A DNA stretch of 32,000 nt. It comes from Candidatus Nanoclepta minutus (GTDB lineage: Archaea; Nanobdellota; Nanobdellia; Nanobdellales; Nanobdellaceae). Each line of letters starts with the position of its first letter. Within the stretch, counting starts at the first letter, position 1. Shown piece by piece: positions 880 through 31,744 of the stretch. The notes beneath the pieces were generated by a model that searched no databases, was not told where the DNA came from, and worked only from the letters and a program-made list of their open reading frames with translations. The stretch covers positions 67,161 to 99,160 of the forward strand of contig MWMI01000002.1 in the NCBI GenBank assembly GCA_003568775.1. Direction: 5' to 3'. A program made the position numbers and the translations under genes.

Positions 880-989
880 GCCGCCGTAGCTCAGGGGTTA
901 GAGCGCCTGGCTCATAACGGAAGTTATGAGCGATGATCGGTGATTAGTGGGAAACCAGGAGGTCGGGGGTTCAAATCCCCCCGGCGGCA
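880..989 (+). tRNA. tRNA with CAU anticodon (elongator Met or Ile2) containing a 37-nt intron at the canonical 37/38 site
   Basis: Hand-folded cloverleaf: GCCGCCG/CGGCGGC acceptor, GCTC/GAGC D stem, CCTGG/CCAGG anticodon stem, loop CT-CAT-A|intron|A, variable AGGTC, T arm GGGGG-TTCAAAT-CCCCC, discriminator A. G1-C72 argues against an archaeal initiator (A1-U72). Confidence 0.9.
917..953 (+). other. tRNA intron (37 nt) with a BHB-like splice motif
   Basis: CUCA (911..914) can pair with UGGG (948..951) as a 4-bp helix. It is flanked by 3-nt bulges UAA (915..917) and AAA (952..954) that contain the inferred splice sites. Confidence 0.7.
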
Positions 990-6546: not shown

Positions 6547-7179
6547 ATGATAGCTATAGATTTCGATGGAACATTAGTTGATAGTTATACAATCATACCG
6601 ATAATCTATAAAAAGTTCCAAGAAGACTATAAACTTCCAGAAGGATTCGTAGATGCAATGCTATGCTTTGAGGATATATGGGATTTCTTTGGAATATTCG
6701 AAAGGAAAAGATGGATAAAATACGTATTTAAAGATGGGGAAAGTCTCTGGGAAGATTATTGGAAAATTAGGGAAGAGAATCAAGTTATGCTCCCGGGGAC
6801 TATAGAATTCTTAAAAAGTGTTAAGAAAGAGTATAACCTATACCTAGTTTCTTCTGTTGATGATACGGAGGACATCAAGATTAGGAGGATAAAATCTTCA
6901 GGCCTTCAGGTATACTTCAAAGATATTATCATATATGGAACTGAAGATTTTCCAACCATATTAGACGCTATAAAGTATTTAATGGAAGAGGAGAAAAAAC
7001 TGATATATATAGATGATAAAAACACTAATATATCGAAGTTGTTAGATTTAAAGAACATTAAGCTGATTAAAAGGATATTCTACCCTCCCTTTCCTTTTAA
7101 GCTAGCCTGGAGATACCCAAATGTTGAAGTAGAATACATAACCAATCTACTGGAAATATTGCCCTACCTTAACGTATAG
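6547..7179 (+). CDS. HAD-superfamily hydrolase
   Basis: 210 aa. Motif I IAIDFDGTLVDS (DxDGT), a later S-type motif II (LVSS), and a DD-containing motif (IYIDDK). Confidence 0.7.
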   Translation: MIAIDFDGTLVDSYTIIPIIYKKFQEDYKLPEGFVDAMLCFEDIWDFFGIFERKRWIKYVFKDGESLWEDYWKIREENQVMLPGTIEFLKSVKKEYNLYLVSSVDDTEDIKIRRIKSSGLQVYFKDIIIYGTEDFPTILDAIKYLMEEEKKLIYIDDKNTNISKLLDLKNIKLIKRIFYPPFPFKLAWRYPNVEVEYITNLLEILPYLNV

Positions 7180-7874
7180 TATATTCTCTTATTATTTTTT
7201 CCTCTATTCTCTAGCTTCAATACCTTTATCCCTCCTATTTCCCTCGTATTAGATACATGAGGTCCTCCATCAGCTTGTAAATCTATTCCCTCTATCTCAA
7301 CAATCCTCCACTCCCTAACATTTGGAGGTGATTTTTCCATCAACTTTACAATACCTGGTATCTTCATCGCTTCTTCTCTACTAAGAAAATAAACCTTAAC
7401 AGGAACTCCCCTTTCAATTATTTTGTTTGTTTCTATAACTGCCTCTTCCAAGATGTTCCTCCAGTTATCGGACGATAAGCTATAATCGTCTCTCGCATAT
7501 TCTGGAGTTATTTCTCCACCAGTTATCAAGATATTGTATCTGTTATATAAAACTGCAGACAGAATATGGGCAGCAGTATGAAGCTTCATTAATCTATATC
7601 TTCTATCCCAATCTATCATACCTTTAACTACATCGCCTTCCCTAAACTTAGGCTCTCTATCAAGAACATGCAATGCCTCCTCACCATCCTTTATAACTTC
7701 CTTAACAAAGTATTCTTCATCATTAAAGATCAACTTACCTGTATCACAATCTACTCCACCTGTCCTCGGATGAAATATAGTCTGATCTAAAACAACTCTA
7801 TTTCCCTCTACCCTAACAACCCTAGCCTCAAACTCTTTAATATAGCTATCATACCAATACAAATACTTTGTCAT
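7164..7874 (-). CDS. alaX: AlaX-M type alanyl-tRNA editing protein (tRNA_SAD domain)
   Basis: 236 aa. FHPRTGGVDCDTG N-domain pattern, HTAAH (HxxxH) zinc motif, and DGGPHV where CxxxH is expected. Confidence 0.85.
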   Translation of the reverse strand: MTKYLYWYDSYIKEFEARVVRVEGNRVVLDQTIFHPRTGGVDCDTGKLIFNDEEYFVKEVIKDGEEALHVLDREPKFREGDVVKGMIDWDRRYRLMKLHTAAHILSAVLYNRYNILITGGEITPEYARDDYSLSSDNWRNILEEAVIETNKIIERGVPVKVYFLSREEAMKIPGIVKLMEKSPPNVREWRIVEIEGIDLQADGGPHVSNTREIGGIKVLKLENRGKNNKRIYYTLR

Positions 7875-8521
7875 TATTTAAAGAAATCTTTAATGTTTTT
7901 CTGTCTTTTGTCCCTTATTTTCCTAACGGTAAACCAGGTCTTCCTAACATAATCTTTCAGAATATCATAATGATCTTTTAAAGACTCTATAGTTCTTTCA
8001 TCAGAAGGATAGCCTGAACCAAAATCTACCCCAACTTCCTCCTTTATTTTCTCTATTTCCCTATCTCTAATAACCTTAGCAACTATAGAAGCTGCAGATA
8101 CTATAGGATATTTCTTATCTGCTTTTATTTCAACTATTAACTCTGGCTTATAACTTAATCTATCGTAAATCATCTTCTTAAGCTTCTCGCTATTCCTAAT
8201 AAAAGAATCTATAACTGCTCTATCTGGCCTTAATTCCTCTATTATCTTACATGAATACTTTATCTCTAAGTAATTTAGTTTCCCCTTCTCTACATAGTAA
8301 TCTATGATTGCAGGTGGAATAATGTGATAAGTTGTTCTTACTTCCATCTTCATCAACTCTTCAAATATCTCTTCCCTCCTTTCTCTAGATAACTCCTTAG
8401 AGTCCCTAACTCCTAACTCCCTTAGAATATCCATCTCTCCCTCTTCTATCATGGCCCCTGCTATAACTAATGGCCCTATTACAGGACCCCTGCCAGCCTC
8501 ATCAATCCCTAAAATCCTCAT
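7874..8521 (-). CDS. rnhB: ribonuclease HII
   Basis: 215 aa. MRILGIDEAGRGPVIGPLVIAG and SAASIVAKVIRD are classic RNase HII motifs. Confidence 0.93.
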   Translation of the reverse strand: MRILGIDEAGRGPVIGPLVIAGAMIEEGEMDILRELGVRDSKELSRERREEIFEELMKMEVRTTYHIIPPAIIDYYVEKGKLNYLEIKYSCKIIEELRPDRAVIDSFIRNSEKLKKMIYDRLSYKPELIVEIKADKKYPIVSAASIVAKVIRDREIEKIKEEVGVDFGSGYPSDERTIESLKDHYDILKDYVRKTWFTVRKIRDKRQKNIKDFFK

Positions 8522-9519
8522 TTCCAGGTTCTAGGATATATATCTTTCTCCATTAAAACCCTATCCACATCTATAGCTATCCCCTTGTTACTTTCCATAA
8601 TCTCTTTAGAGGACATCCTAGCTACACCTACCGCCACAAGCTCGTTCTTCAATGTATAGACCCCAACTATATCACCAGGTAATATATTAGAATAGAGCTT
8701 TGAAATACCAGGTACATATACGTCTGCTCCGTGTGTTATTGCACCAACTGCCGTATCTAAGACCCAGACCTTCTTTAAGTGTTCCGCAGATATCTCATAA
8801 GGTAAAAAAACTTTCCTTATATACTCTTCTTTTCCTTCATTTTTCCAAAACCAAATAGAATCTACAACTTCCTGTAAATATACTATCGGATACTTCTCCG
8901 AATCCTCCTTTAATTCTCCAACTCTAATCCTCCTTAGTTGCTGCATGTGGGCACCGGTACCTAGCCTAACCCCTATATCATAAATCAGCTTCCTAATGTA
9001 TACACCTGCCTCAGTAGCTATCTGAAGTAACCAATCCCTACCATCGACCTCTAATACCTTAATACAGTATACTGTTTTTCTCCTAGGGACTTTCTTTACA
9101 GCAGATTTAAGGGGAGGTTTTTGAACTATTTCACCTTCAAACTCCTTTAGAACTTTCAAAACCTTTTCTTCCTCTAAATCACCATGCAGACGCATCCAAG
9201 CAACATATTCCTTTCCAGCCAACAAAAATAACCTCAGAGCCTTCGTAGCCTTCCCAACACCGATCGGAAGTACTCCAGTAACCTTCGGATCTAATGTACC
9301 CCCATGTCCTACCTTCATACCCAATATTTCCTTTAACCAAGCTACTACTTGATGGGAAGTAGGACCTGAAGGTTTGTCTAAGTTTATAATAGAATGGGAG
9401 ATATGGTATTCTATAGGTCTTCTATCAGGATAAAAACCATACCTTTCATCAGTCTCAGCCTCCTTTTTTACTAATATTTCGTATTCCTCCTTTTCATATG
9501 GAAACTTACAATATTCCAC
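8518..9519 (-). CDS. cbf5: tRNA/rRNA pseudouridine synthase Cbf5 (H/ACA RNP catalytic subunit)
   Basis: 333 aa. GHGGTLDPKVTGVLP catalytic motif (TruB family) and a C-terminal PUA-like region (LVAVGVARMSSKEI). Confidence 0.93.
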   Translation of the reverse strand: MEYCKFPYEKEEYEILVKKEAETDERYGFYPDRRPIEYHISHSIINLDKPSGPTSHQVVAWLKEILGMKVGHGGTLDPKVTGVLPIGVGKATKALRLFLLAGKEYVAWMRLHGDLEEEKVLKVLKEFEGEIVQKPPLKSAVKKVPRRKTVYCIKVLEVDGRDWLLQIATEAGVYIRKLIYDIGVRLGTGAHMQQLRRIRVGELKEDSEKYPIVYLQEVVDSIWFWKNEGKEEYIRKVFLPYEISAEHLKKVWVLDTAVGAITHGADVYVPGISKLYSNILPGDIVGVYTLKNELVAVGVARMSSKEIMESNKGIAIDVDRVLMEKDIYPRTWK

Positions 9520-9520
9520 A

Positions 9521-10075
9521 CTATTCCTTCTTCTCTTCTGTAGGTTTACTTTCGGAGATTCCCTTTATAGACTTCCTTAGGGGGTGATCTTCGTTTGAAA
9601 TTGGTGAATAGGAGCAATAACTTATCTTATCTTCTTCATCCCTCTTCACTAGATATCCTGGAGAAGTTATTACGTTTTCTCCTACCATTATGTGACCATG
9701 GACTATCAGCTGCCTAGCCTGCTTTATTGTCCTAGCAAGCCCCTTCTTGTATACGATGGTCTGAAGCCTCCTATCTAATACATCCCTTACAGTAATACGT
9801 AATACATCGCTAAGGCTAGAACCCTCTTTAATGAAACCATACTTTATCAACTTTCTCATAAAAGCTTCCTCATCCTTCGATACATTGAAACCTGCTGCTT
9901 TCCTTGCATTTAAGTATCTTACATGATGTCTTATCTTTCTAGCAATTGTAAATGCCTTCCACAATTCTCTCTTATTCTTTAGACCATATTCCTTCAATAG
10001 TTCTCTTTCCTCATCGATCCTATACTTTATCCAAGGATGGGATGGACCTTCCCAAGTTTTTCTAATCCTCCACAT
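9521..10075 (-). CDS. rps4: 30S ribosomal protein S4 (uS4, S9e type)
   Basis: 184 aa. KTWEGPSHPW start and an S4 RNA-binding domain (RRLQTIVYKKGLARTIKQARQLIVHGHI). Confidence 0.93.
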   Translation of the reverse strand: MWRIRKTWEGPSHPWIKYRIDEERELLKEYGLKNKRELWKAFTIARKIRHHVRYLNARKAAGFNVSKDEEAFMRKLIKYGFIKEGSSLSDVLRITVRDVLDRRLQTIVYKKGLARTIKQARQLIVHGHIMVGENVITSPGYLVKRDEEDKISYCSYSPISNEDHPLRKSIKGISESKPTEEKKE

Positions 10076-10076
10076 C

Positions 10077-10553
10077 TTACTTCTTTCTTTGTACTCCTAC
10101 AACTCTGCCTTTTCTATGATGAGACCTCGTTCTTTGTCCCCTGACTGGTAGGCCATATGAATGCTGCCTTCCCTTCCATGTTCCAAGCTCCATCTCTCTC
10201 TTAATATCAAATTGTACCCTTATCTTCCAATCCGGTCCAACTAGATGTTTATCCTTACCATCTTCCAAATCTCTCTGTCTATTAAACATCCATTTCGGGA
10301 TACCATACTTCTCTGGATTCTTTATACAATCTTCAAGTTTCTCTAACTCTTCATCAGATAAAGAACCTAATAGCCTCCACTTATTTATACCTAAAGCCTC
10401 GCATATAGCATGAGAGAACCTCCAATTTACTCCTGCTAACCTTGTAAGCTCAACATATATTGGTTTATGTCCATCTAGTTCTGTTTCTACTATTCTTATA
10501 ACATCCTTTATCTGAGCTCCTTCCGGTGTGAATGGTTTAAGAGCACCTGGCAT
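10077..10553 (-). CDS. rps13: 30S ribosomal protein S13 (uS13)
   Basis: 158 aa. RIVETELDGHKPIYVELTRLAGVN... and a basic C-terminus GLPVRGQRTRSHHRKGRVVG. Confidence 0.93.
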   Translation of the reverse strand: MPGALKPFTPEGAQIKDVIRIVETELDGHKPIYVELTRLAGVNWRFSHAICEALGINKWRLLGSLSDEELEKLEDCIKNPEKYGIPKWMFNRQRDLEDGKDKHLVGPDWKIRVQFDIKREMELGTWKGRQHSYGLPVRGQRTRSHHRKGRVVGVQRKK

Positions 10554-12363: not shown

Positions 12364-12717
12364 TTGAATATGAAAAGACTATATGCTATTTTTAAAAGGA
12401 TTGAAAAGAAAGAGATTTTCGATGATATGAAGGCTCTATATAACTTAGCAGATGAGTTATCAATTAATTTCAATTTAGAAAATGTAAAAAAGAAAGTTAT
12501 AAGCGATATTGAAAACAATTTTTTCCAGCTATTATTGGAATCCAAAGAACTCTCCGTATACCTAACCTACTGGAGATCTATAGATATGTTAAGTTTAGAG
12601 GTAATATCAAAGAATATAGACCCTTTCTCTATATATGAACATCTTAAGAACACGTTCATACCAAAGTATTATTCTGTCTCAATCCAGCAAACCCAAAAAC
12701 AGGACCTATATGAGTAG
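12364..12717 (+). CDS. hypothetical protein
   Basis: 117-aa ORF. Its last 62 nt overlap the 3' end of the convergent DegV gene. No family recognised, so its reality is uncertain. Confidence 0.35.
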   Translation: MNMKRLYAIFKRIEKKEIFDDMKALYNLADELSINFNLENVKKKVISDIENNFFQLLLESKELSVYLTYWRSIDMLSLEVISKNIDPFSIYEHLKNTFIPKYYSVSIQQTQKQDLYE

Positions 12718-13420
12718 ATATAATTGGATTCATTAATATTTCCTTACCTGATACCTTTCTCGTATTGCTAGCATACAGTTTTAATTTATATTTCTTTTCT
12801 AGATCATAAAAATCCTTAATTAAATCTGAAGAAAGTTTAAACAATTCTAGCCTTCCATCTCTTATATTTAATATTGGTTTCTTATTAACTAACCTTAGGA
12901 AAGAATACTTCAATAGGTTTATCCTTCCGGAATTGAGCAAATAGTTTATGTTCTCTACAAATGCATAAGTATCTATCCTTTCTCTCATACTATTTATTCT
13001 CTCAACTACCTCATCTATTTTATACTTCTCCAATAACTTTTTAGCAATCAAAACTAAAATCCCGCTCCCCACCGATGCGTTTCTTGTATCAATAACGTAT
13101 ATTTTCTTTTTAATGAACTTAGAAGCATTCAAAGCTACATTATATGTACCCGATAACTCCGAACTTACTGTGAAAACTAAAATTTCTTCTTCACAAGATT
13201 TATAAACTTCCAGAAAATCTTCTAAAGTAGGTTGAGAAGTTTTAAGCTTTCCAGACAACCATTCTTCCCTAAACTTCTTATAAAATTCATACTTAGAGTT
13301 ATAAAAGATCGGTATCTTATCTCCATCCTTTATTACATATAAAGGTACAACTTTTATACCGTATTTTTCTATTATCCTCCTAGGTAGATCTACAGTAACA
13401 TCAATTACAATATCAACCAT
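12656..13420 (-). CDS. DegV/FakB-family (fatty-acid/lipid-binding) protein
   Basis: 254 aa. TSQP, SSELSGTYN, NLLNSGRI, KPIL...DGRL and C-terminal THIGPVFGFAG match the order and wording of DegV-family motifs. Confidence 0.85.
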   Translation of the reverse strand: MVDIVIDVTVDLPRRIIEKYGIKVVPLYVIKDGDKIPIFYNSKYEFYKKFREEWLSGKLKTSQPTLEDFLEVYKSCEEEILVFTVSSELSGTYNVALNASKFIKKKIYVIDTRNASVGSGILVLIAKKLLEKYKIDEVVERINSMRERIDTYAFVENINYLLNSGRINLLKYSFLRLVNKKPILNIRDGRLELFKLSSDLIKDFYDLEKKYKLKLYASNTRKVSGKEILMNPIISTHIGPVFGFAGLRQNNTLV

Positions 13421-14270
13421 TTATTTCATCGATTTCTATGTTTTCTATCTCAACAAAAGGGATTAGAAGATTTATGGTATTTTCTACAGATCTCGTATGG
13501 AGGTGTATTTTTACATGATCTCCAAACTCGTTAATAATCAAAGAATCCTCATCCTTTAAACAATTCCTTATTTTATCTATAGAATACTTAGGCTTTGCCA
13601 AAATATTCAAGCAGAATATCTTACCTTTAACTCTTTCAAACTTTTCTTCCTTTAGATACTTCTTTAAGTTTATCTTTATATCCCCCCCGATAGATTCTAT
13701 CCATCCCTTTAACATCAAAACTACCCCCAAACCTCCAGAATCAATAGTCTTCTTCAAGTTAACATTTTCCCTCTTATTCTCCAGTTCCTTCAGGGATTTT
13801 CTAATGCATTTATCTAACCAATCCTTTAAGTTTTTGGACTTAACTATCTCCCTCTCCATTACTCTTATTACAGTTAGCATAGTTCCCTCTCTAGGTTCTT
13901 TAACGGAAGAGTATGCGTATTCCCTAGCCCTTTTAATGGCCCTGAATAAATCCTTTAACTTAACCTTTTTCTTATCTTTTAGCTCTATATATAGACCATA
14001 GAAGAACATGGATATAATGTTACCCGAATTTCCCTTAGATACCTTCATCGATATGTCCTTAATTATCTCTAAGATCTTTCCTATGTGGTTTATCTCTACG
14101 TTCTCTATACCTTTCCTTATATTCTCAAAGAGTATCCTAAGATTCGTACCAGTATCCTTGTCTCTAACTGGAAAGTAGTTTAGTTCGTTTAATATACTTT
14201 CGTGAAAGGATATTTGATCGGCAGCTCTGAGCATCATATCTTTAAATATACTGCCATCTATTTCCTCCAT
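13413..14270 (-). CDS. Dak2/DhaL-domain protein resembling the N-terminal kinase domain of FakA (YloV family), truncated form
   Basis: 285 aa. IDGSIFKDMMLRAADQI...LNYFPVRDKDTGTNL and KGNSGNIISMFFYGL parallel the FakA/DhaL motifs (LNVYPVPDGDTGTNM; GNSGVI). Its stop overlaps the DegV start by 8 nt. Confidence 0.8.
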   Translation of the reverse strand: MEEIDGSIFKDMMLRAADQISFHESILNELNYFPVRDKDTGTNLRILFENIRKGIENVEINHIGKILEIIKDISMKVSKGNSGNIISMFFYGLYIELKDKKKVKLKDLFRAIKRAREYAYSSVKEPREGTMLTVIRVMEREIVKSKNLKDWLDKCIRKSLKELENKRENVNLKKTIDSGGLGVVLMLKGWIESIGGDIKINLKKYLKEEKFERVKGKIFCLNILAKPKYSIDKIRNCLKDEDSLIINEFGDHVKIHLHTRSVENTINLLIPFVEIENIEIDEING

Positions 14271-14350
14271 CCTTATTATTTTTTTATCATCTATTTTAAG
14301 TTTATCTATCCTTTAAGATTGAATTTAAATATAGGATCCGACTAAGATTT

Positions 14351-14830
14351 ATGAACGTAGAATCATTAATAAACATGTTCTCCTATCTCGGATTATTCAT
14401 GATCGGACTATTAAGCACCATAGGTCTCTTCATATCCCCGCCATTATACTTAAGTCTACCCTTAATACTCTATAAAACGAAATTTAATCCAATACTATCG
14501 ACTTTACTAGTTGCTCTAGGAATGAGCGTCGGGGATACTATAGGTTATTTCATAGGATTCTCGAGTGAAAAATTATTAGAAAATAAAATATATGAAAAGG
14601 AGAGGTACAAAAAGTTCTCGGAATTCATAAACAAATATGGGCCTATAACCATACCTTTACTTTCAGCATTACCTTTTCCATTCTTTGATGCACTAGCAAT
14701 AGCCTGTGGATTTGCAAAAATAGATATAAAATCCTACTTTATCTATCTGTTCTTCGGTAGGCTAATAAAAGTAAGTCTAATAGTCATAGCAGGTCAATAT
14801 ATACTAATAAGGCTACCATTTGAAATTTAA
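14351..14830 (+). CDS. small polytopic membrane protein, possibly DedA/SNARE-associated (VTT-domain) family
   Basis: 159 aa with about 4-5 hydrophobic helices. The GMSVGDTIGYFIGF segment resembles the DedA glycine-rich re-entrant motif. The family call is tentative. Confidence 0.45.
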   Translation: MNVESLINMFSYLGLFMIGLLSTIGLFISPPLYLSLPLILYKTKFNPILSTLLVALGMSVGDTIGYFIGFSSEKLLENKIYEKERYKKFSEFINKYGPITIPLLSALPFPFFDALAIACGFAKIDIKSYFIYLFFGRLIKVSLIVIAGQYILIRLPFEI

Positions 14831-19648: not shown

Positions 19649-20790
19649 ACTAGTTCTTTAAACATCAAATCCCTTATCCTCTCAATATTCCTGCCTTCCT
19701 CATCAGAATACTCTTCATAGAAATACTTTAACTTCTGTAAAATCTCCATAATAGACTTCTTATCTTCATCTGATACTAAAAGCTGTGATAGTACATCCTC
19801 AAAGATCAAATTATCCTCCTTTATCACTATCTCTTCTTCAATATCCGAGGGATAATATTCGTCAATTATCAGGTATCCACTGGAAATTAAACTATCGATG
19901 GATCTCCTAATAGAATCGTAAAGGTCTCTCCTATACCTTACCCTAACCTTTATTAGGCTTTCCTTCGATTTTTTATAAACTTCCTCATATAGTTCGTTTA
20001 TATCCCCCTCCTTCTCTATATGCTTCTCTATTATTGAGACCTTCCTAGCCCCTGTAGGTATGAACTTATAGTTAGAATCCTCAAAGTAAAAGAAACCTTT
20101 CTCAAACTTTTCTTCGATCGGAGATATTTCTGTCCTTTCCGTTGATCCTGGCAAAGAAAAGATCTTTTCATCTATCTTTGTAATAAAACTATTGTGGAAA
20201 TGTCCAAATGCATAAAAATCTACATCAGGGAATTTATCCTGTCCTATTATCCTAGGCTCCTTAGAATATTTCTCCAATAATCCTTCTGGAACGACGTTAG
20301 ATACACCATGGAATAATAGGATAGAATATCCCGTCTTGTCAACCTTCATTTCCTTCAAGATCTTTTCATATATAAATTTAAGCTCATCCCCCGATAAGTT
20401 TGATGGTTCAGATATACCATAAATATAGAAATCCTTAATAACTATGGGCTCCCTCTCATTTGCTTCTATAATGAGACCTAACTTCTTCAATATCTCAACT
20501 GTATTCTGCTTTTGTCCCTTATTATCATGATTTCCCTTAATGAATATGAAAGGTATACCCTTCTCCTTCAACTTAAAGAGGATATCTAAGATATCCAATA
20601 TATATCTAGAAGAAATCCTGAAATAGTCATCAAGGAAATCACCAGAATGAATTATAAAATCTACATTTTCCTTAATCGCAAAATCTACAACCTTCTTAAA
20701 TGCCTCCAAAAAATCCCTCTTTCTTATTTCCCTATAAGTTACTGGAACTTCACACCCCAGATGAGTATCAGATACATGTATAAACTTCAT
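19645..20790 (-). CDS. mre11: Mre11 nuclease
   Basis: 381 aa. Phosphoesterase motifs HVSDTHLG, HSGDFLDD, GNHD, LFHG and GHFH. It overlaps rad50 by 4 nt. Confidence 0.92.
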   Translation of the reverse strand: MKFIHVSDTHLGCEVPVTYREIRKRDFLEAFKKVVDFAIKENVDFIIHSGDFLDDYFRISSRYILDILDILFKLKEKGIPFIFIKGNHDNKGQKQNTVEILKKLGLIIEANEREPIVIKDFYIYGISEPSNLSGDELKFIYEKILKEMKVDKTGYSILLFHGVSNVVPEGLLEKYSKEPRIIGQDKFPDVDFYAFGHFHNSFITKIDEKIFSLPGSTERTEISPIEEKFEKGFFYFEDSNYKFIPTGARKVSIIEKHIEKEGDINELYEEVYKKSKESLIKVRVRYRRDLYDSIRRSIDSLISSGYLIIDEYYPSDIEEEIVIKEDNLIFEDVLSQLLVSDEDKKSIMEILQKLKYFYEEYSDEEGRNIERIRDLMFKELV

Positions 20791-20810
20791 ACTAATTTTT
20801 ACCTAAAAAA

Positions 20811-21257
20811 CTATAAATTACTTACTTCCTTGAGGTATCTCTCAAAAAAATCCCTAACTTTCTCCTTATCCTTCCCATATCCATCTATACTTATCTTCAA
20901 ATGGAAGACATCGTCTCCGTATAAAGGAAAGACTTTGTCTTTTTCCAATAAATAACTCTTATCTAGTCTTACGTATATATTGTAGTCTTCATCAAAATTC
21001 ATTTCATCCAAGAACCTATCAATATCCAAACCCCTCTTTATGAGATTTCTAAAGAAAGTATGAATATGTTCCTTCTTCTTTATCTTTACGGATATGTAGA
21101 TTAGATTTGAACTTACTATACCCTCTCCTCTATTTTCTATTATATCTACCTTCTCTTTATCTATACCTTCTAATAAATCAAGGACTTTTTCCTTAATTTT
21201 ATTATAATCCTCTCCTTCATGTACTATCACGCTGAGTTTTACTTCAGATACTCTCAT
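20811..21257 (-). CDS. hypothetical protein, possibly DUF54/COG1325-type RNA-binding protein (tentative)
   Basis: 148 aa. N-terminal KLSVIVHEGEDYNKIKEKVLDLL resembles my recollection of the DUF54 start pattern (h.h.vHatEDeeKV..al). Lies 20 nt upstream of mre11 on the same strand. Confidence 0.35.
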   Translation of the reverse strand: MRVSEVKLSVIVHEGEDYNKIKEKVLDLLEGIDKEKVDIIENRGEGIVSSNLIYISVKIKKKEHIHTFFRNLIKRGLDIDRFLDEMNFDEDYNIYVRLDKSYLLEKDKVFPLYGDDVFHLKISIDGYGKDKEKVRDFFERYLKEVSNL

Positions 21258-24450: not shown

Positions 24451-24834
24451 CTATGGATAGAAAGTTAGATTGCTCGGGTAACTATATAAAAAGAAACTAC
24501 CTGTAGAAGTTAAATATGTATACTTTGAGAAAGGTCCCTCTGATAAGTTCAGAAAGTTTACCTTACTTCCAAAGGTAACATAGACTATATCCCCTTTAAC
24601 ATCTATATAACCAATTCCAACTATCCTCGGTTCAGAAACTACGTAGCAATACATCCTACCCAAGTATAGATTACCTAAGGCTATGCAGAAAACTACGTTG
24701 TTCCTAATATAGTTCCCTAGCAGAGTGTCCGAATAAAGATAAAGAGGAAAATTAGAAAATAGATTAGTTAAAAAGTAATATACAAAAAATAAGATCAAAG
24801 TTATTAATACTATCTCTAACGCTCTAGATGGCAT
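24451..24834 (-). CDS. small prepilin-like protein (class III signal peptide)
   Basis: 127 aa. MPSRA|LEIVLITLILFFVYYFL, with NxS/T sequons. Its start directly abuts the stop of the upstream gene (TAGATG). Confidence 0.5.
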   Translation of the reverse strand: MPSRALEIVLITLILFFVYYFLTNLFSNFPLYLYSDTLLGNYIRNNVVFCIALGNLYLGRMYCYVVSEPRIVGIGYIDVKGDIVYVTFGSKVNFLNLSEGPFSKYTYLTSTGSFFLYSYPSNLTFYP

Positions 24835-25662
24835 CTATGATGATATACTAATATCTACATATATCTCCCTTACAAGGTTATTACTACATACAGTAGAATT
24901 ATATGAGTTATCATAATATCTCCTATATGAAATAACTACTGGTATTTTTGTGGTTATCTGTGTAGCTGAAACACCATATGGAGATAACCTTATCCAAAAA
25001 CACTGACCGTTTTCCATGTTCACTATGGGTCTACAAGTTATCTCATATGATACCTCTCCACCAAGCTGAAGGGCATTTATGATACAGGGAGGAGATGTTC
25101 TATAATAGCCTGTCGGGTATCTAGGTAAGAACCTTAAATGAGTTCCGTTATAGATTATATCGAACACGTAATCCGATGTTATAACGTTATTTAAATTTCC
25201 TAAAGGAAGATCTACACTCTTATTAGATATTTCATCGATTATTCTAAAGCTTCCTGTACTTATAGTAATGTTTATATGGCTTCTATCACTACATAACTTT
25301 CCTGAATATGAAATGGTAAAGGTATCATTTGGACAGTATGTATACTCATCATAGTTCACAGGAACTTTTACTATTGAAGAATAATATTGTATCGGTATTT
25401 TTATTCTAAGTTGAATTAAATCTGGATCTATCTCAAAATAAGAGTTCTGTATATCTAACTGAAATGTTGATACTCCAAAATCTAAGGCTGTTTTTGAGAT
25501 CCTATCTGCAAAATCCGATAACTTTGATTCTACAGAAGATAATGTATTCCTAACATAGGACTTCTGTACCAGGGGAACAACATAGTTATACACGGTCAAG
25601 GCAACTCCCAAAACTACTGCACCTAAGAGAACGTACCCAACAATTTGCTCTTGAGATCTCAT
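24835..25662 (-). CDS. large prepilin-like / pilus-associated extracellular protein
   Basis: 275 aa. MRS|QEQIVGYVLLGAVVLGVALTVY N-terminus, six Cys, five NxS/T sequons. Confidence 0.5.
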   Translation of the reverse strand: MRSQEQIVGYVLLGAVVLGVALTVYNYVVPLVQKSYVRNTLSSVESKLSDFADRISKTALDFGVSTFQLDIQNSYFEIDPDLIQLRIKIPIQYYSSIVKVPVNYDEYTYCPNDTFTISYSGKLCSDRSHINITISTGSFRIIDEISNKSVDLPLGNLNNVITSDYVFDIIYNGTHLRFLPRYPTGYYRTSPPCIINALQLGGEVSYEITCRPIVNMENGQCFWIRLSPYGVSATQITTKIPVVISYRRYYDNSYNSTVCSNNLVREIYVDISISS

Positions 25663-25695
25663 ATAATTACATAAAATTAAAAAATTAATAAGTTT

Positions 25696-25701
25696 AAAAA
25701 A
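25696..25701 (-). terminator. oligo-T tract (T6 on the minus strand) directly after the pilin A stop codon
   Basis: Plus-strand AAAAAA abuts the TAG stop (complement of 25702..25704). Archaeal termination typically occurs at oligo-T. Confidence 0.35.
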
Positions 25702-26181
25702 CTACGTAAACGTAACCTCTTTTGCCACAGCACCCATAGTAACTCTCAATACGTAATAGTTTAGTGTAATATTACCCACATTAGAGCAGGTAAAATTAAC
25801 TATTGTAGAAGATCCTACATTCAAAGTTCCTGATAAAGTAGTGTTTGTTGTACAAATGCTCTGCTTCCATACACCTACTTCAGGTGCAGTCCTATTATAA
25901 ACCGATACTGAAGCGTTTACCTGTGTTTTACTAAAATCTATATTAACAGAACCTGTATTCCTTATACTAACAGTAAAAATAAGATCAGAACCTGAAGGAG
26001 TGGTTCCAACAGGTGCTACGGAGAAATCGAACGCTGTTGATTGAAGTATTTGCTGTCCAGTTTGAGCAGTTAGCTGTGTTAACATACCACTCATCCATGT
26101 ATACATCAATGCAGCTATACCTACTGTCATGATGATTAAAAGTATTGTTGCAATAATCGGTGAAACTGATCTTTTCATCAT
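25702..26181 (-). CDS. archaeal type IV pilin (Pilin_N-type N-terminus), paralog A
   Basis: 159 aa. MMKRS|VSPIIATILLIIMTVGIAAL matches the archaeal pilin N-terminal pattern R(A/G/S)VSPVIxxILxxAITV. Two conserved Cys and several NxS/T sequons. Confidence 0.8.
   Translation of the reverse strand: MMKRSVSPIIATILLIIMTVGIAALMYTWMSGMLTQLTAQTGQQILQSTAFDFSVAPVGTTPSGSDLIFTVSIRNTGSVNIDFSKTQVNASVSVYNRTAPEVGVWKQSICTTNTTLSGTLNVGSSTIVNFTCSNVGNITLNYYVLRVTMGAVAKEVTFT
26011..26181 (-). repeat. direct repeat copy 1 (171 nt, 5' end of pilin A)
   Basis: Codons 1-57 encode the same amino acids as 26478..26648. By eye there are about 6-7 nucleotide differences, and all are synonymous. Confidence 0.9.
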
Positions 26182-26648
26182 TATCTAAAGATAACTTCTT
26201 TTGAAGTTGAGCCTATGGTAACTCTTAAAACATAATAATATCTGGATACATCTATATTAACACCACAGGTAAAAATAAACGATTTTGATTCTCCAACTGA
26301 TAGAGTACCGGTATTTATAGTTGAACAAGAAGACTGATTTACAACACCTGCTGCTGGATTCAACCTATCATAAACGGTTACTGCAGCTATAGCATTTGTT
26401 TTACTAAAATCTATATTAACAGCTCCTGTATTCCTTATACTTACAGAGAAAGTATTAGTACCATTGGGAGATGCAATAGGCGCAACAGAGAAATCGAATG
26501 CTGTTGATTGAAGTATTTGCTGTCCAGTTTGAGCAGTTAGCTGTGTTAGCATACCACTCATCCATGTATACATCAATGCAGCTATACCTACTGTCATGAT
26601 GATTAAGAGTATTGTTGCAATAATCGGTGAAACTGATCTTTTCATCAT
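26181..26648 (-). CDS. archaeal type IV pilin (Pilin_N-type N-terminus), paralog B
   Basis: 155 aa. The first 57 aa are identical to paralog A. Its stop TAA shares one nucleotide with the ATG of paralog A (TAATG). Confidence 0.8.
   Translation of the reverse strand: MMKRSVSPIIATILLIIMTVGIAALMYTWMSGMLTQLTAQTGQQILQSTAFDFSVAPIASPNGTNTFSVSIRNTGAVNIDFSKTNAIAAVTVYDRLNPAAGVVNQSSCSTINTGTLSVGESKSFIFTCGVNIDVSRYYYVLRVTIGSTSKEVIFR
26478..26648 (-). repeat. direct repeat copy 2 (171 nt, 5' end of pilin B)
   Basis: See copy 1. The copies are 467 nt apart, start to start. Confidence 0.9.
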
Positions 26649-26669
26649 TATAGATTATAATCTCATTAT

Positions 26670-26678
26670 TATTTAAAA
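26670..26678 (-). promoter_or_regulatory. TATA box TTTTAAATA upstream of pilin B (predicts a leaderless or near-leaderless mRNA)
   Basis: The minus strand reads AATTTTAAATAATAATGAGATTATAATCTATA-ATG. The box spans -30..-22 relative to the A of the ATG and has the same 9-mer as the tRNA(CAU) promoter. Confidence 0.45.
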
Positions 26679-27164
26679 TTATTGTATCCTCTTTATACCC
26701 TGTATTGGTGGCGGAGGTATAGGTCTCCTAATCGTTCTCTCTTCCTTCTTCTCTTTTTCTTCCTTTAACTTTTCTATTTCAGATCTTAAATTATCCAAAG
26801 CTTCCAATATTCTTTTATTCAAATTTTCCATTTCTTCAACTTTCTTCTCAATATTTCCTGATTTAAGAGATGGTTTACCTTCAATATAAAATAGTGCAGC
26901 TTCTTTAAATATGTTTAACAATTCTTTTAAATCTTTACTCAACCCATTTATTACAACTATAAGTTCTGATATCTTAGCATGTAATTCTAAGTTGCTTTTG
27001 ATTAAACTATTTATAATATCTTTATAGATCTTATCCGAACCCTCTGAATTTTCTTCCGATTCAACTGGCTCTTTCTTTAATTCGTTTATCGATTCCTTAA
27101 CATCATAAATCTCTTTTACTATTTTCTCCAATACTTTGGATAGATCATCCCTATTCTGACCCAT
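26679..27164 (-). CDS. hypothetical coiled-coil protein with a Pro-rich basic C-terminus (first gene of the pilin cluster)
   Basis: 161 aa, E/K/L-rich with heptad patterns, ending RTIRRPIPPPPIQGIKRIQ. No TM segment and no family recognised. Confidence 0.45.
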   Translation of the reverse strand: MGQNRDDLSKVLEKIVKEIYDVKESINELKKEPVESEENSEGSDKIYKDIINSLIKSNLELHAKISELIVVINGLSKDLKELLNIFKEAALFYIEGKPSLKSGNIEKKVEEMENLNKRILEALDNLRSEIEKLKEEKEKKEERTIRRPIPPPPIQGIKRIQ

Positions 27165-30758: not shown

Positions 30759-31209
30759 GGCAATATTAAACTATCAGTTTGGGGATAAGGTTGGAGACAG
30801 GATAGTTGAGAAGTATAAAGATAGTATAAAAGTTGAAGTTAGCAAGAATACTGGGAGAATAAGGAGGGTTTATATAGATGACAAACTCTTTGGCACTATA
30901 GAACCAACAACAGGTTTTATAATACCATCCTTTTTTGGAGGAGAAATAATTAAGGGATTCTTAGAGTATCCAAAATATAGAGTTGTAGTTTCTGATGATT
31001 CATTACCTTTCATAAAAGAAGGAAAATCTGTATTCTGTAAATTCGTTGTTGAAATCGATGATAGTATATTACCAGAGGACATAGTATTCGTAGTGGATGG
31101 TAAGGATAATCTAATTGCGGTTGGGATAGCAAGGTTGTCTGCATCAGAAATAAAGAGCTTTAATAGGGGAGTTGCAGTAAAAATAAAGCATGTTGGAGGT
31201 AATATATAA
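30739..31209 (+). CDS. PUA-domain RNA-binding protein (pre-PUA + PUA)
   Basis: 156 aa. The C-terminal DGKDNLIAVGIARLSASEIKSFNRGVAVKIKHV is a typical PUA core. Confidence 0.75.
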   Translation: MELSIVRAILNYQFGDKVGDRIVEKYKDSIKVEVSKNTGRIRRVYIDDKLFGTIEPTTGFIIPSFFGGEIIKGFLEYPKYRVVVSDDSLPFIKEGKSVFCKFVVEIDDSILPEDIVFVVDGKDNLIAVGIARLSASEIKSFNRGVAVKIKHVGGNI

Positions 31210-31744
31210 AAAGATAATTCCTAAGGATTACTTAGATATAATAAACAGTAAAGAACTTTATAGAAGATTATTCAAACTATCCATATTCTTATTCAACCTA
31301 TCAATATATTCCATTCCACTTTTATTGTTCCATTTAGGCTTAATAAAGATACCAATAGAAGTCTTATCTTCCTATACAGACATAATAGGAAGGCTATTGA
31401 TCATGGAAAAGGAAATACTGTCTAACAATATAGTAGTTAAAAGTTTTGTATTCCAAATAGATCAGGAATGTATGGGAATAAAGTCAATATTGGGCTTTTT
31501 TGCTATAATGATGTCTACCCCAACTAAAGAAATAAAAAGGAGATTTCTATACTTTCTAATATTTTCTCCAATAGTGTTCTCTCTAAACATTCTAAGGATC
31601 CTATCTACAGTTTATGGCTTCTATTTTTATAACTTAGATCCAGGCTTCTTCCACAACTTCCTATGGGAAGTTCTAAACGTTATTGCTATAGGTAGTTTAT
31701 GGGCGGTCTTTTATATCAAAAATAAAGATAATACCTTATTTTAA
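31190..31744 (+). CDS. small exosortase/archaeosortase-family membrane protein (putative)
   Basis: 184 aa, polytopic. Ordered Cys...Arg...His candidates in family-like contexts: IDQECMGIKSIL, FSLNILRILSTVY, FFHNFLWEVLN. Confidence 0.55.
   Translation: MLEVIYKKIIPKDYLDIINSKELYRRLFKLSIFLFNLSIYSIPLLLFHLGLIKIPIEVLSSYTDIIGRLLIMEKEILSNNIVVKSFVFQIDQECMGIKSILGFFAIMMSTPTKEIKRRFLYFLIFSPIVFSLNILRILSTVYGFYFYNLDPGFFHNFLWEVLNVIAIGSLWAVFYIKNKDNTLF

Follow-up and report, generated by a model that had tools for sequence, protein, structure and literature searches.

A pair of overlapping genes in a 32,000-nucleotide stretch of contig MWMI01000002.1 from Candidatus Nanoclepta minutus (in the following, the window means this whole stretch) is read here, at a probability of roughly 0.72, as encoding a minimal fatty-acid kinase which dispenses with the C-terminal domain of bacterial FakA (FakA_C) and works in the cycle proposed below. 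The gene of the kinase subunit, fakA_NL, overlaps that of the binding subunit, mini-fakB, and a small membrane protein gene of the DedA family lies divergently beside them. The features concerned are the following:

13413..14270, minus strand: fakA_NL, 285 amino acids (aa), FakA_N (Dak2) plus FakA middle domain, no FakA_C (Pfam Dak2 and FakA-like_M)
13698..14168, minus strand: Dak2 or ATP-(Mg2+)2 domain, residues 35-191 of the kinase (Pfam; alignments to FakA_N structures of the PDB and 21 relatives)
13422..13592, minus strand: FakA middle (L/M) domain, residues 227-283 of the kinase (Pfam PF21645)
12656..13420, minus strand: mini-fakB, 254 aa, predicted DegV-family fatty-acid-binding subunit (Pfam DegV, TIGR00762)
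13413..13420, minus strand: 8-nucleotide (nt) overlap ATGGTTGA of both genes, translational coupling (sequence)
14271..14350, no strand: divergent intergenic region, 80 nt (sequence)
14351..14830, plus strand: DedA/VTT-domain polytopic membrane protein, 159 aa (Pfam VTT_dom)

A preliminary description of this DNA, made from the letters and their translations, had given the same three open reading frames (ORFs) with their sizes, the stop/start overlap and the divergent gap, all of which were found as claimed, and the motifs quoted there are present in the translations. The profile searches that it proposed returned Dak2 (E 1.2e-22), DegV (E 4.8e-42) and VTT/DedA (E 5e-16). Its core idea of a compact two-component kinase of the Fak type likewise holds, with catalytic residues conserved on proper alignment and confident AlphaFold2 (AF2) models matching FakA and FakB. 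In the literature, no description of an archaeal FakA/FakB system linking DegV or Fak to DPANN, Nanoarchaeota or archaea was found, and the database labels of the pair proteins read only "DAK2 domain-containing" and "DegV family".

In bacterial FakA, the N-terminal domain is a Dak2 domain holding ATP and two Mg2+ via D38 and D40 (PMC9136124, PMC11617999, PMC10848957), the L or middle domain forms the dimer interface and carries a zinc site of C240, H282 and H284, all three being essential (PMC9136124, PMC11617999), and FakA_C holds FakB by a groove around E548 in Staphylococcus aureus or E538/E554 in Streptococcus suis (PMC9136124, PMC11617999, PMC10848957). The 285-aa protein of the window is a FakA kinase with its middle domain and lacks only FakA_C. 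In an alignment with 21 short and full-length relatives, D37 and D39 take the positions of S. aureus D38 and D40, the motifs G80-N-S-G83, E128-G-T130 and D177-S-G-G180 are present, and EGT(M)LT is also kept; all of the ATP- and Mg-binding residues (D37, D39, GNSG, EGT, DSGG), on which the preliminary description had made its proposal depend, are thus conserved. Residues 227-283 match Pfam FakA-like_M with 25.4 bits (cut-off 24.9), the protein covers positions 1-292 of 530 of the NCBIfam YloV model (TIGR03599), and C220, just upstream of the matched segment, corresponds together with H256 and H258 to S. aureus C240, H282 and H284. The former view of a Dak2-only protein without a middle region had to be given up on these grounds, whereas the loss of the C-terminal FakB-docking region, which was claimed along with it, stands: FakA-like_C is absent from the 285-aa protein, which ends at the last middle-domain strand according to the YloV profile and the alignment, an ending common to all short relatives aligned. 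As a whole, FakA_NL stays under the curated cut-offs of YloV (165.8 vs 396.1) and of FakA_VfrB (NF038248; 107.4 vs 975). The catalytic and metal-binding residues and the C220/H256/H258 triad are invariant in 12-13 archaeal homologues at identities down to 22-32%, and every residue with a mutagenesis-proven role in S. aureus FakA_N and FakA_L is present in the window kinase (roles: PMC9136124, PMC11617999). For the AF2 model (predicted local distance difference test, pLDDT, 92; predicted template-modelling score, pTM, 0.90), Foldseek returned S. suis FakA 7w7h (1.4e-16) and S. aureus FakA_N 7rzk (root-mean-square deviation 1.8 Å) as top matches, with DhaL being much weaker at 1.7e-6.

The 254-aa partner is a true FakB/DegV protein and not a detached FakA_C. 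It scores 144.6 bits against Pfam DegV (PF02645; cut-off 27) and 159.6 bits against TIGR00762 (cut-off 99.7), and it does not reach the FakB1 equivalog cut-off (95.6 vs 350). It has the two-domain EDD-type fold, and its AF2 model (pLDDT 95.7) matches 45 fatty-acid-binding FakB/DegV chains in Foldseek, including FakB1 and TM1468, at a query-based template-modelling (TM) score (TMq) of about 0.8 and E of about 1e-21, and DhaK chains at E>0.01 only. T61, S90, R166 and H237 correspond to T62, S95, R173 and H270 of S. aureus FakB1, and the gating region is conserved. The same data decide on the idea that a canonical FakA has been split here, with the 254-aa ORF being its detached FakA_C and the true FakB lying elsewhere. 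Nanoarchaeota are known for split genes, the window itself holds a split alanyl-tRNA synthetase (AlaRS), the gene boundary falls at a domain junction, and Pfam FakA-like_C gives a weak hit of 31.8 bits on the 254-aa protein. However, this hit stands against 144.6 bits for DegV and a passed TIGR00762 threshold, the FakA_C structure 6W6B is matched by the model at only 2e-4 and a TM score of 0.46, phmmer found no FakA_C domains at E<=10, and the equivalents of Arg173 and of the Thr/Ser carboxylate ligands are in place. On Pfam scores, Foldseek and phmmer, the split of a canonical FakA was rejected, and its probability is minute.

The minimal kinase lacks FakA_C on the one side and a docking residue on the other. 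FakB is docked into FakA_C by Arg205 (S. suis FakB2: Arg202), a residue in contact with the membrane as well (PMC9136124, PMC10848957) and called completely conserved in FakBs (PMC8892158). In mini-FakB, this position is taken by Ser (KLSSD). While 11/13 free bacterial FakBs have Arg here, this applies to 1/9 of the archaeal mini-FakBs, and none of 72 fused DegV domains carries Arg or Lys (0/72), with hydrophobic residues (Phe, Leu, Tyr, Ile, Met, Pro or Val) being found in all of them instead. The equivalents of T62, S95 and R173 do not vary in any of the three groups. Thus, the loss of FakA_C and the loss of the docking Arg go together, leaving the catalytic core untouched.

The fused DegV domains belong to bacterial relatives of about 590 aa, all of the eight scanned (8/8) consisting of Dak2, FakA_M and a full DegV without FakA-like_C; the fusions scanned or listed comprise L014, L015, L023, L033, L048, L060, L069 and L080 as well as about 70 further genome loci within L013-L090. 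They occur in Bacteroidota, Thermoleophilia, Cloacimonadota, Acidobacteria, Aminicenantes, Neisseria, Burkholderiales and Woeseiaceae, whereas the canonical representatives P0080 and P0091 consist of Dak2, M and FakA-like_C. In bacteria of the candidate phyla radiation (CPR), namely Saccharibacteria and Paceibacterota, single polypeptides of 850-920 aa join PlsY, Dak2, M and DegV (L051:2541-5132 from Saccharibacteria, confirmed by Pfam and NCBIfam; L064, L068, L078 and the Paceibacterota locus L070), and such polypeptides are likewise recorded for the metagenome loci L093, L107, L113, L117, L123, L163 and L170. A chain of this kind would by itself cover every step between fatty acid and lysophosphatidic acid, and it would answer the published puzzle of PlsY without PlsX in CPR genomes (PMC7242380). 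No NCBIfam model was passed by the short or the fused kinases. A literature search returned nothing relevant on FakA-FakB fusions and no paper on the Dak2-M-DegV architecture of about 590 aa. An independent case was met at L008:3290-5029, where a bacterial-looking short FakA (254 aa) is accompanied by a long DegV (318 aa) with His at the Arg205 position, in the neighbourhood of acyl carrier protein (ACP), ketoacyl synthase, PlsC-type and LpxL-type acyltransferases and B12/radical-SAM enzymes.

At the gene junction, the frames ...AAT GGT TGA of fakA_NL and ATG GTT GAT of mini-fakB run over one another within ATGGTTGA. L001 shows the same 8-nt overlap, the overlapping pair is conserved across relatives at 54-93% identity, and the short kinase and the short DegV occur always together in the loci examined. 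According to a junction alignment, the boundary between both genes sits exactly at the 11-14 residue linker of the bacterial Dak2-M-DegV fusions. Since both coincide, the archaeal pair is, as judged from the sequences, the unfused counterpart of the single-chain Dak2-M-DegV enzymes. The phmmer scores did not separate a fused-type from a free-type origin of the archaeal DegV, and the free set was biased by its mode of collection. The divergent spacer holds a TATA-like box at a fitting distance from each start codon, namely TTTAAATA 19 nt before the ATG of dedA and, on the minus strand, TTAAAATA about 24 nt before that of fakA_NL; in an AT-rich genome of 32% G+C, they might at best be taken as weak candidates for archaeal TATA boxes of near-leaderless transcripts.

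The link to lipid metabolism comes from related loci. PlsY acylates glycerol phosphate with acyl-phosphate (PMC9136124), and a 2026 study reported that bacterial PlsY takes both glycerol-1-phosphate and glycerol-3-phosphate (PMC13400652). At least five operon types cluster the short kinase with plsY, and the gene orders compare as follows:

L005 and L092: fakA_NL-plsY-degV
L091: fakA_NL-plsY-degV, kinase 44% identical to the window kinase
L171: fakA_NL-plsY-degV
L173: plsY-plsY-fakA_NL-degV
L178: plsY-plsY-fakA_NL-degV
Window, L001-L004 and L011: dedA divergent from fakA_NL-degV

Archaeal markers accompany the operons in L005 (histone, TFIIB, eIF5A), L171 (S-layer C-terminal domain, PTH2) and L178 (archaeal-type S-adenosylmethionine synthase, RuBisCO large subunit). 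L091 and L092 stem from a metagenome scan with the archaeal alignment, in which the closest relatives from the Joint Genome Institute (JGI) were not among the matches listed; the genome scan yielded only two archaeal species representatives. Two archaeal lineages distant from each other have tandem duplicated plsY genes immediately ahead of fakA_NL-degV (L173:4414-5603, L178:4777-6004), and the hot-spring-type archaeal PlsYs feature xSG(V/L)G in place of GG(K/R)G. Besides, a membrane protein of the PAP2 family (phosphatidate phosphatase-type) is encoded at L171:9266-10165 on the minus strand, about 4 kb from the fakA_NL-plsY-degV operon and beside ribosomal protein S11.

That the same short pair is repeatedly clustered with plsY in sister archaeal lineages suggests that the pair would serve fatty-acid salvage. 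A role in lipid salvage had already been proposed in the preliminary description; it fits a group reported without lipid synthesis (PMC4935971) and is now strongly backed by the clustering with plsY. The same link argues for ordinary fatty acids rather than for the new ligand which had been expected there, and the natural ligand of the pair is probably a fatty acid. Neighbour-joining on the N+L region unites 13 short kinases, most of which come from loci of archaeal context, in one group with 89% bootstrap, and the window lineage (100% support) is nested there beside the plsY-linked L091 (88%). Due to this nested position, the plsY-linked state is probably ancestral, and the window lineage would have lost plsY from the locus.

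The archaeal short-kinase clade is itself nested among bacterial sequences in the N+L tree, and the pair looks horizontally acquired from bacteria. This could be taken to mean that a decaying acquisition is at hand, the pair being purely regulatory or a relic, or else a non-lipid kinase of the Dak type, DhaL-like and acting on a small polar substrate held by an EDD-fold partner, as dihydroxyacetone kinase has the Dak2 and EDD folds too, Foldseek did return DhaL (1.7e-6) and the window holds no downstream enzyme. Yet the scores for DhaL (TIGR02365; 31.1 vs 138.3) and Dak (29.2 vs 575) are far under their cut-offs, the partner is DegV and not DhaK, and the FakA-specific middle domain with its Cys/His/His triad is present. 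Moreover, the functional residues are invariant at 22-93% identity and the overlap is kept in a genome under strong reduction, which points to purifying selection. Accordingly, a non-lipid or relic pair is quite unlikely. The identity as a dihydroxyacetone kinase was rejected on the NCBIfam scores and the DegV partner.

Several observations weigh against the fatty-acid kinase as proposed and are gathered here. The 254-aa protein is a true DegV, as the preliminary description had it, but not the full one claimed there, being about 30 aa shorter than bacterial FakBs with two deletions in the C-terminal subdomain. The equivalent of His270, although His in the window, is Asn or Val in most archaeal homologues, so that pocket and ligand could differ. 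The archaeal homologues of PlsY have diverged, reaching 53.6 bits with TIGR00023 (cut-off 137), and the kinase phylogeny consists of neighbour-joining only. Nanopusillaceae live on crenarchaea, whose lipids are ethers, and a fatty-acid supply from such hosts is not obvious. Neither plsY, plsX, plsC nor other lipid genes were found in the 32-kb window by Pfam and local hidden Markov model (HMM) scans, the former having covered the ORFs of at least 100 aa except the trio at 8518-10553 (Cbf5, S4 and S13; placed by synteny) and 20647-20955 (102 aa), the latter those of at least 70 aa; likewise, plsY and the others were not found on the contigs of relatives bearing the pair within the window lineage. 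Nevertheless, Candidatus Nanoclepta minutus, a nanoarchaeote in culture, has a plsY homologue as a stand-alone gene on a related contig, which means that a gene missing from the locus need not be missing from the genome. That acyl-phosphate feeds a PlsY in this genome is conceivable on this basis, with the odds somewhat against it.

Part of these points would also suit a kinase of the same chemistry with another ligand, in which a host-derived archaeal lipid acid or some other hydrophobic carboxylate, such as an isoprenoid acid, would occupy the trimmed DegV and serve the remodelling of ether-lipid-derived material. Nanopusillus reportedly has no lipid biosynthesis and relies on its host, with the symbionts taking host lipids, and the host membranes of Nanopusillaceae are isoprenoid ethers (PMC4935971). 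The two deletions in the archaeal DegV C-terminal subdomain, the variable His270 equivalent across the archaeal clade and the lack of plsY in the locus of the window lineage all agree with such a ligand. Against it stand the sister lineages, in which the short pair shares one operon with PlsY, and the window lineage being nested in this plsY-linked clade. Furthermore, the carboxylate-binding residues and the gating region are conserved, the His is retained in the window, and the best structural matches are fatty-acid-loaded FakBs. An isoprenoid or similar acid is accordingly an improbable ligand, albeit the most serious of the alternatives weighed here, and the fatty-acid kinase is preferred.

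For the ligand, the docking mode and the fate of the product in this genome, we infer the following cycle from the observed architecture, residues, fold, linkage and co-variation. Mini-FakB would take up a free fatty acid, the carboxylate of which would be held by T61, S90 and H237 under the latch or catalytic R166. FakA_NL, probably a dimer through its Zn-stabilised middle domain, would hold ATP-(Mg2+)2 in the Dak2 domain via D37 and D39, with the Zn middle domain (C220, H256, H258) aiding dimerisation and activity, and would move the gamma-phosphate of ATP onto the carboxylate to form acyl-phosphate. Since FakA_C and Arg205 are both gone, direct active-site recognition is needed, and the subunits would meet at the Dak2/DegV active-site face like DhaL and DhaK. 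The overlapping stop and start would see to it that both subunits are made in equal numbers, standing in for the covalent tether by which the Dak2-M-DegV fusions are joined. In the sister archaeal lineages, the operon-encoded PlsY would then acylate glycerol phosphate to lysophosphatidic acid, whereas in the window lineage, without plsY in the locus, the consumer of acyl-phosphate may be encoded elsewhere or be absent.

Docking without FakA_C had been announced as new in the preliminary description, which goes too far. An engineered S. aureus FakA_NL is an active kinase, the sole defect being a 10-fold higher Km for FakB1 (0.99 vs 0.09 uM; PMC9136124), and the fused bacterial family lacks FakA_C as well. 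Such docking is therefore not without precedent, though unexplored.

The DedA/VTT family includes the TMEM41B/VMP1 scramblases and the bacterial DedA proteins of polyprenyl-phosphate recycling. The divergently encoded window protein is likewise small and polytopic with a nearly complete VTT domain, and it differs from the family in being short (159 aa) and Fak-linked in one lineage only. Its earlier description as a small polytopic DedA-like protein agrees with 4-5 hydrophobic segments and a match to PF09335 of 59.7 bits (cut-off 33.9) over profile positions 14-122 of 123; the E. coli-type DedA equivalog is not reached (21.4 vs 236). The window shares dedA as the conserved divergent neighbour of the pair with L001-L004 and L011, including loci with a different far flank, and none of the plsY-linked loci has it. 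An operon of GT2/GT4 glycosyltransferases is headed by dedA in L003 and L004, so that a role with polyprenyl-phosphate or glycolipids fits at least as well as a Fak-related one. Of the link claimed earlier, the conservation within one family-level lineage thus remains, while the glycosyltransferase operon makes for a weak tie, and a functional connection of DedA to the kinase pair is doubtful. DedA as a general Fak partner found no support outside the Nanopusillaceae-like lineage.

The archaeal context of the pair, also claimed in the preliminary description, is borne out by housekeeping neighbours in the window (G+C about 32%), i.e., thermosome, Cbf5, S4/S11/S13, HerA-Mre11-Rad50, an XPD-like helicase, diphthamide synthase and a split AlaRS fragment. 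The closest named relative of the pair is a metagenome-assembled genome (MAG) of Nanopusillaceae with 54% identity, one MAG labelled Aenigmatarchaeota by its submitter is among the nearest named relatives, and a JGI contig carries copies of both genes 92-93% identical to the window pair. Further features of the window are:

7164-7874, minus strand: AlaRS C-terminal fragment, 236 aa, end of tRNA-synt_2c plus tRNA_SAD
880-989, plus strand: tRNA, 110 nt, Rfam 63.7 bits, missed by ARAGORN
31190-31744, plus strand: 184-aa protein of the exosortase/archaeosortase family, PF09721, 32.5 bits
22567-24405, minus strand: T2SSE/FlaI-type secretion ATPase, adjoining the ORFs of the next line
24451-27164, minus strand: five ORFs in a row (127-275 aa), none with a Pfam match
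12364-12717, plus strand: 117-aa ORF starting at TTG, convergent to degV, the 3' end of which it overlaps by about 60 nt

A split AlaRS is typical of Nanoarchaeota, and the fragment at 7164-7874 is syntenic in L001 and L003. The tRNA is presumably an intron-containing archaeal one. The exosortase/archaeosortase-family protein represents a membrane protein of the lipid-anchoring transpeptidase type, and the five ORFs may form a pilus or archaellum-like surface module together with the adjoining ATPase. The 117-aa ORF is a real small gene with unassigned function, its protein being conserved with 62.5% identity in L001 (E 2e-46) and 45% in L003, L004 and L011, and having no Pfam or PDB match.

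The question of how reduced DPANN archaea and CPR bacteria acquire and modify their membrane lipids becomes testable with three small, thermostable proteins. PlsY and PlsC homologues were noted in DPANN and CPR genomes without PlsX or ACP as the acyl-phosphate source (PMC6431249, PMC7242380), and a FakA_C-less kinase beside or fused to PlsY would fill this missing step of supply. With regard to Fak enzymology, the pair exposes a FakA_C-independent mode of catalysis: a natural lineage and a larger fused family have dropped FakA_C and the docking Arg together, and from this joint loss it follows that a second docking mode must exist. If ester lipids are really made, this would bear on the lipid divide and on mixed membranes in cultivable nanoarchaeal symbionts. 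As a wider and rather speculative proposal, which we regard as less probable than not by some distance, Nanoarchaeota and other DPANN symbionts, for which the uptake of finished ether lipids from the host is the accepted view, might also run a minimal bacterial-type acyl-phosphate pathway of FakA_NL, mini-FakB and PlsY, turning scavenged free fatty acids into ester-linked acyl-glycerophosphate lipids within mixed membranes; the direct Dak2-DegV docking might also occur in the fused bacterial and CPR kinases and perhaps represent their ancestral state, and in the window lineage the divergent DedA might move the product or host lipids across the membrane.

Compared with the FakA/FakB systems of Firmicutes (S. 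aureus, S. suis; PDB 7RM7, 7W7H, 5UTO), the pair shares the Dak2 ATP/2Mg domain with both Asp, the Cys-His-His Zn site, the T62/S95/H270 network and the catalytic R173, as well as the functional pairing with PlsY in the sister archaeal operons. It differs in lacking FakA_C and the FakB Arg205, in a FakB which is about 30 aa shorter, in its archaeal origin and in genes overlapping by 8 nt. The engineered S. aureus FakA_NL (PMC9136124) has the identical domain content of N and L/middle domain; however, this construct is laboratory-made and was paired with a wild-type Arg205 FakB, whereas the window holds a natural version with an altered partner. With DhaL/DhaK (PDB 3PNL), the pair has the two-subunit logic in common, in which a Dak2 subunit phosphorylates an EDD-held substrate without an extra docking domain, while its partner is DegV instead of DhaK, the FakA middle domain is present and the DhaL models are not reached. 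The bacterial Dak2-M-DegV and the CPR PlsY-Dak2-M-DegV fusions share with the pair the absence of FakA_C, a non-Arg residue at the Arg205 position and the same three or four modules, the order plsY-plsY-fakA_NL-degV of L173 and L178 being collinear with the CPR fusion. In the bacterial form, the modules are covalently joined via a linker of 11-14 residues and feature a full-length DegV domain of 280 aa, whereas the archaeal form consists of two polypeptides with a trimmed DegV.

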